A DNA stretch of 64,000 nt from an uncultured archaeon (GTDB taxonomy: Archaea; Aenigmatarchaeota; Aenigmatarchaeia; QMZS01). The notes below the pieces were generated by a model, which made no database searches, was not told the origin of the DNA, and worked only from the letters and a program-made list of their open reading frames with translations. Positions 16,622 to 17,058 of the stretch are shown one piece after another (the stretch's first letter is position 1; each line of letters starts with the position of its first letter). Location of the stretch: assembly GCA_964547015.1 (NCBI GenBank), contig CAZJKT010000003.1, forward strand, positions 1,154-65,153, given 5' to 3'. The position numbers and the translations under genes are program-made.

Positions 16622-17058
16622 GCGGGGGTCGCCAAGTCTGGTCAGTCCTTCTTTCTTTTAGAAAGAAAGAAGGTCCGACACTACCAAGAAAAAAACCAAA
16701 TTTCCTGCTTCGCAGGAATATCCCCTCAATCTTGGACATGTTGAAGAAGCCCAGAAAAAGGTGCAAGGCTTAGGTGCCGGCAAGGCGCCTGGAGTGCAAT
16801 GCCCAGGAGCTTGGCTGAGAAACCTTGTGGGTAAGCCTTTTCTTTCTAAAGAAAGAAAACGCTTAATCGAAAAGAAAGACAATTTCGCATATCACGGTGA
16901 AATTGGTTAGGAAGAAGAGCCTCCACAATAGTCCCTTCGGGAGTTCGAATAAAGACTTTCTTTTGTAAAAGAAAGTCCTTAACGTCAAAGAAAACCAAGT
17001 TTCCGCTTCGCGGAATATTATTATAAATTTGGCGTGTGCGAGAATCTCCCCTCCCGCA
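16622..17058 (+). tRNA. tRNA-Leu (anticodon UAG) with four introns. Exons 16622-16644, 16758-16774, 16822-16835, 16932-16950 and 17046-17058; introns about 16645-16757 (D-loop), 16775-16821 (37/38), 16836-16931 (variable arm) and 16951-17045 (T-loop).
   Basis: Manual fold. Acceptor GCGGGGG/CTCCCGC (one G-U pair) with discriminator A; class II D-arm GCC-AAGTCTGGTCA[intron]AA-GGT; anticodon stem CAAGG/CCTTG with loop CTTAGGA; variable arm T-GGG-TAAGT-CCC-TTC; T-stem GGGAG/CTCCC with loop TTCGAAT. Spliced length is 86 nt. Confidence 0.65.

Follow-up and report, generated by a model that had tools for sequence, protein, structure and literature searches.

A probable tRNA-Leu(UAG) gene with four bulge-helix-bulge introns in a member of the Aenigmatarchaeota

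Results

The tRNA-Leu(UAG) gene and its predicted product

The window analysed here is a stretch of 64,000 nucleotides (nt) from an uncultured archaeon of the Aenigmatarchaeota (GenBank assembly GCA_964547015.1, contig CAZJKT010000003.1), and positions 16622-17058 of its forward strand carry a tRNA-Leu(UAG) gene that is interrupted at four sites. Of its 437 nt, the exons account for 86 nt and the introns for 351 nt (80%). When the unspliced window was analysed with ARAGORN, no tRNA was reported, and a search of the whole window against Rfam at gathering thresholds returned nothing. Lowering the Rfam threshold to E<=10 over positions 9700-21400 yielded no tRNA, intron or small RNA family at the locus, and the sole match overlapping the gene was a chance microRNA hit (E 6.4).

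The original prediction, made from the letters of the DNA, had proposed a single tRNA-Leu(UAG) gene whose D-loop, anticodon loop, variable arm and T-loop each contain an intron. Its five exon strings (23, 17, 14, 19 and 13 nt) were found exactly at 16622-16644, 16758-16774, 16822-16835, 16932-16950 and 17046-17058 of the forward strand, and after joining they were recognized by ARAGORN as an 86-nt class II tRNA-Leu(tag) with a full cloverleaf. The exons as we delimit them (Table 1) give the same call. The cloverleaf consists of a 7-bp acceptor stem, a D-arm with G18G19, the anticodon loop CUUAGGA with the anticodon UAG, the T-arm GGGAG-UUCGAAU-CUCCC and the discriminator A73. Their variable arm reads U-GGG-UUAGU-CCC-UUC. 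Thus, the long variable arm, the leucine anticodon, A73, G18G19 and the UUCRA T-loop of a class II tRNA-Leu are all present. The CCA end is not encoded. The exons have a G+C content of 60%, compared with about 44% for the window.

Table 1. Coordinates of the tRNA-Leu(UAG) gene parts and of other features in the 64,000-nt window
Feature	Position	Strand	Description
TATA-like box	16596-16603	+	TTTTAAAC; -26 to -19 from G1; read from the sequence, putative function
Exon 1	16622-16643	+	22 nt; acceptor 5' strand, D-stem 5' strand, D-loop to GGUC
Intron 1	16644-16756	+	113 nt; D-loop, ~20a/20b; relaxed HBh'; H CTGG/CCAG; bulges TCA, AAA; two-hairpin module
Exon 2	16757-16774	+	18 nt; D-loop end, D-stem 3' strand, anticodon stem 5' strand, loop through G37
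Intron 2	16775-16821	+	47 nt; canonical 37/38; full hBHBh'; h 7 bp, H CTTA/TGAG, h' 5 bp
Exon 3	16822-16832	+	11 nt; A38, anticodon stem 3' strand, U44, variable-stem GGG, first loop U
Intron 3	16833-16928	+	96 nt; variable-arm loop, between GGGU and UAGUCCC; HBh'; H GTGG/CCAC; bulges GTA, AAT
Exon 4	16929-16949	+	21 nt; remaining variable loop, CCC, UUC, T-stem 5' strand GGGAG, T-loop UUCGAA
Intron 4	16950-17044	+	95 nt; T-loop, 59/60; hBH; h = 5-bp T-stem, H TTCG/CGAG; bulges AAT, AAT
Exon 5	17045-17058	+	14 nt; U60, T-stem 3' strand, acceptor 3' strand, A73
tRNA-splicing endonuclease EndA	17672-18505	+	Pfam PF01974, PF02778; 0.6 kb downstream of tRNA-Leu(UAG)
tRNA-Leu(CAA), three introns	21237-20828	-	Exons 21237-21216, 21051-21034, 20968-20937, 20841-20828
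tRNA-Arg(UCG), two introns	9828-10090	+	Exons 9828-9866, 9960-9981, 10077-10090

Bulge-helix-bulge motifs at the four intron sites

All junctions within +/-8 nt were scored in both orientations for motifs of the bulge-helix-bulge (BHB) type, in which a central helix H of 4 bp lies between two 3-nt bulges and the cuts fall after the second nucleotide of each bulge. We found that all four introns form H with four of four pairs, carry 3-nt bulges on opposite strands and have at least one flanking helix (h or h'). One of the motifs is a strict hBHBh', two are HBh' and one is hBH. In intron 1, h' comprises 2 bp in the window, which by eye are followed by a 2-nt bulge and a 7-bp extension, and it is 3-4 bp long in four related sequences (L137, L147, L116 and L053; retrieved sequences are referred to by such labels). 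In intron 3, h' has a C.C mismatch at the third pair (7/8 pairs) and extends to about 15 bp in the constrained fold. When the introns were shuffled, H with four pairs and 3-nt bulges appeared at a product-preserving junction in 6-12% of the cases per site, and the chance of a BHB core at all four sites jointly was about 5e-5.

Folding of precursors that retained a single intron placed the BHB conformer 0.4-6.3 kcal/mol above the minimum free energy (MFE) structure. The H helices of introns 1 and 3 were already present in the respective MFE structures and the intron 4 motif lay 0.4 kcal/mol above it. For the full precursor, we calculated -139.4 kcal/mol with the four BHB cores enforced and -153.1 kcal/mol for the MFE structure.

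Other types of interruption were considered and rejected. For self-splicing group I or group II introns, no Rfam core match was obtained, and with 47-113 nt the inserts are too short for either core. A split or permuted tRNA gene does not fit since the five exons are colinear on one strand within 437 nt. Inspection of the introns by eye did not reveal a convincing box C/box D pair.

The variable-arm junction

The BHB search confirmed the predicted borders of intron 2 and moved those of introns 1 and 4 by 1 nt with an unchanged product. For the variable arm, however, a BHB core was present at a junction 3 nt upstream of the predicted one. The original prediction had placed this intron between TAAG and TCCC (about 16836-16931), which would give a mature tRNA reading GGGUAAGUCCC with the loop UAAGU. 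This exon set also produces an 86-nt tRNA that ARAGORN accepts, but neither its variable-arm junction nor any product-preserving shift of it forms a BHB in either orientation. The introns of the orthologues described below start with AAATC or ACGCG, and for L137, L146 and L147 a UAAGU loop is impossible. Moreover, uninterrupted leucine tRNA genes of the clade mostly carry UUAGU, with UCAGU in L006. We therefore consider it highly improbable that the predicted exon set is the true pattern. The junction between GGGT and TAGTCCC changes one base of the loop (UUAGU), keeps the product at 86 nt and predicts GGGUUAGUCCC as the mature sequence across the variable arm. An alternative register with H TGGG/TCCA, which would lengthen the product by 2 nt, was rejected; the GCCA of L147 allows just three of four pairs in it and its product does not match the uninterrupted relatives.

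Orthologues and intron-poor relatives

Using exon 1 as query, we retrieved 114 stretches in a metagenome scan. A first spliced-alignment program called up to nine introns per long metagenome match; these were mostly spurious and the program was discarded. A search with the acceptor and T-arm 3' sequence indicated that most matched genes are 85-210 nt long and contain no, one or few introns. In the exon 1 scan the four-intron layout was seen in L137 only, plus the truncated L104, the contig of which ends within the gene and covers introns 1 and 2 as well as the beginning of the intron in the variable arm. Two further sequences, L146 (GCA_016932615.1) and L147, were reached via homologues of ribosomal protein L4 (rpL4). 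Complete orthologues with the same four intron positions are thus L137 (intron lengths 82, 49, 117 and 66 nt), L146 (54, 48, 58 and 92 nt) and L147 (82, 49, 48 and 62 nt), and L104 agrees as far as it is sequenced. Synteny with the window was found for L104 (rpL4 75% identical) and for L146 and L147 (rpL4 75-76% identical), and in the latter two the gene order is rpL4, tRNA, M54 peptidase, EndA.

After splicing, the genes of the window, L137, L146 and L147 each yielded an 86-nt tRNA-Leu(tag) in ARAGORN. The mature orthologues differ from the window at no more than 6 of the 86 positions, while their intron lengths range from 48 to 117 nt, and one T-stem change among them is compensatory (GGGAG/CTCCC to GTGAG/CTCAC). 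H was formed with all four pairs at 15 of the 16 junctions. At the variable-arm junction, all four genes have H GTGG/CCAC with the bulges GTA and AAT. The adjacent h' differs in sequence (AGcCTTTT/AAGAGcCT, AaTCTTTT/AAAAGgcT, AATCTT/AAGATT and CGCGT/ACGCG) but 7/8 pairs are formed in every orthologue. Across these four sequences, 92.9% of the cells of the variable-arm BHB pair, compensatory changes affect 4/8 of the h' pairs, and slid controls pair at 41-64%.

Intron-poor relatives also bear on the exon joins. L116, which is syntenic, L053 and L073 have fewer introns and lack the one in the variable arm, which reads GGGTTAGTCCC in them. This uninterrupted arm (...CCTTGTGGGTTAGTCCCTTCG...) equals the ligation product predicted from the BHB junction, and the exon joins agree with the contiguous sequence of these relatives. 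L116 carries two introns in the syntenic gene compared with four in the window, L137, L146 and L147.

These data bear on the possibility that three introns are spliced, whereas the 96-nt variable-arm insert is retained as a giant arm or otherwise used. Such an arrangement would be compatible with the outer helix h of 2 bp, which would compete with the anticodon stem, and with the lack of a BHB at the originally predicted junction. However, the junction 3 nt upstream has H GTGG/CCAC, bulges GTA/AAT and a covarying h' in four orthologues, and the insert varies from 48 to 117 nt between invariant flanks. It carries a module that also occurs in the introns of the D-loop and the T-loop (see below), and relatives without it show the predicted ligation product. 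Retention of the insert is therefore very unlikely.

An assembly artefact, in which the intron repeats caused a chimeric or expanded contig, might be suspected since the introns hold related low-complexity hairpins. However, the 437-nt gene was 100% identical at the one locus compared in an ENA contig (L144, ERZ27252285 k141_56899), although this contig could be the window's own source. The protein neighbouring the gene occurs on at least 24 contigs, among which L144 was the sole one compared. The same architecture is also seen in separately assembled metagenome-assembled genomes (MAGs) and metagenomes from other samples (L137, L146, L147, L104), which leaves a practically negligible probability for such an artefact.

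Two side observations were made during these searches. An unrelated metagenome tRNA-Leu(UAG) gene (L127, Ga0190363_1032689, positions 141-814) is interrupted at 37/38 by just one intron of about 590 nt, which looked like coding sequence. In assembly GCA_049975565.1 (isolate E05-068; contigs L029/L145), one contig matches the C-terminus of the window's EndA at 100%, while the rpL4 on the other is only 83% identical to that of the window; this bin may mix two related populations.

A shared intron family and two further hidden tRNA genes

When acceptor and T-arm halves were scanned across the window, two further hidden tRNA genes became apparent, tRNA-Leu(CAA) and tRNA-Arg(UCG) (Table 1). The introns of tRNA-Leu(CAA) are located in the D-loop (164 nt), at 37/38 (65 nt) and in the T-loop (95 nt), and this gene was recognized by ARAGORN only once spliced. 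tRNA-Arg(UCG) carries introns at 37/38 (93 nt) and in the T-loop (95 nt). H was formed with four of four pairs at all junctions of both genes.

Local alignment z-scores against 100 shuffles indicated that eight of the nine introns in the three hidden genes belong to one family, with similarity across positions and genes (z = 8-22 across sites). The exception is the short canonical intron 2 of tRNA-Leu(UAG), which is unrelated in sequence to the other introns. The family members in tRNA-Leu(UAG) are introns 1, 3 and 4. Its D-loop intron scored 16 against its own T-loop intron and 22 against the T-loop intron of tRNA-Leu(CAA), and its variable-arm intron scored 8 against the 37/38 intron of tRNA-Arg(UCG). 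The two tRNA-Arg(UCG) introns are similar to each other despite their differing positions (z = 22). Intron 4 is homologous to the T-loop introns of the other two genes.

The family is characterized by a two-hairpin module. A first hairpin has only pyrimidines in its 5' strand and only purines in its 3' strand and is followed by GTCCGACAC or TTAAGC and then by AAAAGAAA; the second hairpin is closed by an invariant GCTTCGC (cUUCGg tetraloop) and its stem covaries. A MAFFT alignment of the module alone gave no consensus structure, whereas the alignment of whole introns returned the two hairpins. The module is also present in tRNA-Leu(CAA) introns of other Aenigmatarchaeota (L001-L006). One copy was found outside tRNA genes, at 23046-23003 on the reverse strand of the window, with the pyrimidine/purine hairpin, GTCTCTACCC and AAAAAGAAAA, and thus the module is not strictly confined to tRNA introns. 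This copy begins directly after the stop codon of a putative coding frame. In L006 (JAGXOL010000003.1, positions 4664-5066), the T-loop intron of tRNA-Leu(CAA) is about 250 nt long and contains a short hairpin module (GGAACTTTTAAAAAAAGTTCCATCAAAAAAAGAAGG) repeated several times in tandem, which suggests that introns can grow by internal duplication. At a distance of 2.4 kb upstream of tRNA-Leu(UAG) there is an open reading frame for an IS200/IS605-type Y1 transposase (13802-14233, forward strand; PF01797 in the gene table of L144). A connection between this frame and the module was rejected; the hairpins flanking the frame are GC-rich and unlike the module.

Upstream flanks

We read the upstream flanks of eight tRNA genes (window 16580-16621, 21238-21275 on the reverse strand and 9795-9827; L001, L005, L006, L146 and L147). 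TTAT directly precedes tRNA-Leu(UAG) as it does the seven other tRNA genes, and a TATA-like box ends about 14-21 nt upstream of position +1 in 8/8 flanks. In Nanoarchaeum, tRNA transcripts begin at the mature 5' end or very close to it, and the spacing of the box would suit such a start here.

We considered whether the locus is a pseudogene, that is, a former tRNA-Leu gene that was riddled by hairpin-repeat insertions and went out of use. The inserts are indeed copies of one repeat family, a further copy lies outside any tRNA gene, and standard tools miss the tRNA-Leu(UAG) gene. On the other hand, the exons are near-invariant and include the compensatory T-stem change, while the introns of the orthologues vary up to about 2.4-fold in length and rpL4 is 75-76% identical (L146, L147). 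Each insert is enclosed by a BHB through which the mature sequence is regained exactly, the promoter-like box and the synteny are kept, and two neighbouring tRNA genes share the same build. These findings make a pseudogene unlikely.

The splicing endonuclease EndA

A gene for a tRNA-splicing endonuclease (EndA) is located downstream of tRNA-Leu(UAG) (Table 1). Its catalytic core comprises residues ~98-277, and the best PDB matches were the enzymes of M. jannaschii (1a79, 1e-23) and N. equitans (3iey_A, 7e-21). The core most closely resembles the alpha4 enzyme of M. jannaschii and the alpha subunit of N. equitans. The PDB alignment shows the conserved YxxxxH...K catalytic positions. Between the catalytic Tyr and His there is a basic insert of 6 amino acids (KLKRGP), which aligns with inserts of the N. 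equitans and ARMAN-2 enzymes, and by inference from the sequence it would correspond to the "L3" loop of Kaneta et al. 2018. Relatives in reference genomes stem almost all from Candidatus Aenigmatarchaeota MAGs, the closest with 70-77% identity, and the host is accordingly a DPANN archaeon. They align only from residue ~98 onward and do not share the K/E-rich N-terminal stretch of about 100 amino acids that residues 1-98 (17672-17965) form. This stretch could be an extension specific to the lineage; alternatively, translation may begin internally, with the ATG at codon 55, the TTG at codon 74 and the GTG at codon 106 as candidate starts. A tblastn search within the window did not find a second EndA subunit. 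EndA is the presumed remover of the four tRNA-Leu(UAG) introns.

Discussion

Based on the observed exons, the BHB geometry with its conservation and covariation, and the presence of an EndA gene, we consider it very likely (probability about 0.85) that the locus is a functional tRNA-Leu(UAG) gene of the Aenigmatarchaeota (DPANN) with four BHB, that is endonuclease-dependent, introns. BHB motifs, orthologues and intron-poor relatives agree in this respect, so that the four intron sites of the original prediction stand. From the sequence we infer the following pathway. Transcription would start under control of the TATA-like box ~25 nt upstream and give a single precursor of about 437 nt. Exon and intron sequences would pair at the four sites, each time to a 4-bp helix with two 3-nt bulges on opposite strands. 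EndA would cut each bulge between nucleotides 2 and 3, which amounts to eight cuts in total. An RNA ligase, presumably of the RtcB type (such a ligase was not seen in the window), would then join the five exons to the 86-nt class II tRNA, and CCA would be added after ligation.

Several points weigh against this interpretation. According to the folding model, the structure with all four BHBs is 13.7 kcal/mol above the MFE of the full precursor. Three of the four motifs are relaxed, with an h of 1-2 bp for introns 1 and 3 and no h' for intron 4, and intron 1 of L147 forms only three of four H pairs. G43 is taken up by H of intron 3, which thereby competes with the last anticodon-stem pair. The unconstrained MFE structure of the precursor is dominated by a pairing of 11 bp that intron 2 forms with the D-arm and that competes with the intron 2 BHB. 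The covariation test for the variable arm comprises four sequences only. Expression and splicing of the gene are deduced from DNA, and an intron-free second tRNA-Leu(UAG) gene or a second EndA subunit may exist beyond the window. The sequence behind the 11-bp pairing is CCAGGAGCUUGGC within intron 2 (16775-16821), which is complementary to GCCAAGUCUGG in the D-arm (16631-16641). In principle, either this pairing or the competition by H of intron 3 could set the order in which the introns are removed.

As for the origin of the extra introns, one intron family occurs across different sites and in neighbouring tRNA genes, and therefore these introns were most likely gained by spread. By analogy to what has been proposed for Thermoproteales, a single intron lineage would have spread to new sites. 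More speculatively, the two-hairpin module might be more than passive filler and mark an active mobile lineage of BHB introns in Aenigmatarchaeota. Mobility, the steering of the precursor into the BHB fold or some role of the excised, probably circular intron RNA might then depend on the module; we regard this reading as a possibility with rather modest odds. If it is true, the comparison of the two-intron gene of L116 with its four-intron relatives would make archaeal tRNA-intron gain directly testable. In any case, a shared intron family together with differing intron numbers at one syntenic gene provides a natural series for the study of BHB-intron gain.

At least four further related lineages have kept the four-intron gene, against the limit of three introns given in reviews. 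With it, the range of multi-intron tRNA genes reaches a DPANN phylum in which our literature search found no paper on such genes. Neither ARAGORN nor Rfam/Infernal detects any of the three tRNA genes in the 64-kb window. Because such genes are hidden, tRNA complements of genomes like this one may be underestimated, with consequences for inferences on completeness and auxotrophy, as has been suspected for DPANN (PMC5829648).

Three introns as the maximum for an archaeal tRNA gene, on which the original prediction had relied, are indeed stated in a paper from 2014 (PMC4033280) and in the tRNAscan-SE 2.0 paper from 2021 (PMC8450103). However, tRNA genes with four introns are tabulated for Asgard archaea (Valentin-Alvarado et al., 2024, PMC11291895, Supplementary Data 4). 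There, four introns were predicted and four observed for Arg(TCT) and Ile2(CAT) of Freyarchaeia, and three were predicted but four observed for Leu(GAG) of Freyarchaeia and Trp(CCA) of Atabeyarchaeia-2. Four introns therefore tie the highest count that we found and are not a record. The calls were made in silico in both cases, but the Asgard genes are 143-231 nt long with short introns, compared with 437 nt here, and they belong to a different superphylum. The main text of that paper is silent on the four-intron genes, and we found in it neither an intron family nor an intron in a class II variable-arm loop.

A close parallel is provided by the tRNA genes of Thermoproteales, for which multiple introns and intron transposition have been described (Sugahara 2008; Fujishima 2010; summarised in PMC4033280 and PMC8450103). 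As in our case, several BHB or relaxed BHB introns occur in one gene, non-canonical sites are used (D-loop, T-loop and near the variable region), sequence-similar introns are found across sites and genes, which implies spread of an intron lineage, and detection requires iterative intron removal. In contrast, the maximum there is three introns per gene (PMC4033280, PMC8450103), compared with four here. The present gene belongs to a DPANN archaeon whose EndA is alpha-like, whereas the crenarchaeal enzyme is of the alpha2-beta2 type with a CSL loop. Thermoproteales tRNA introns are mostly much shorter, and the gene described here has three long introns (95-113 nt) with a conserved two-hairpin module.

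Among eukaryotes, highly disrupted nuclear tRNA genes of the red alga Cyanidioschyzon merolae hold as many as three BHB-type introns each; these lie in the D-loop or the T-loop, at 37/38 and in one case in a variable arm, and splicing was confirmed by reverse transcription PCR for each intron (PMC3728597). The sites are the same as in the tRNA-Leu(UAG) gene, but C. merolae employs a different endonuclease, does not exceed three introns and was not reported to have a shared intron module.

Taken together, the splicing mechanism is the known archaeal one. In the literature searched, we have not seen a description of the DPANN host, of an archaeal intron in a class II variable-arm loop, of introns of this length or of the two-hairpin family. 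Kaneta et al. 2018 (PMC5829648), whose analysis included no Aenigmatarchaeota genome, linked loop-bearing alpha4-type EndAs of DPANN to a larger number of disrupted tRNA genes and noted that incomplete DPANN tRNA sets point to undetected disrupted genes. The tRNA-Leu(UAG) locus is a concrete example of such genes.

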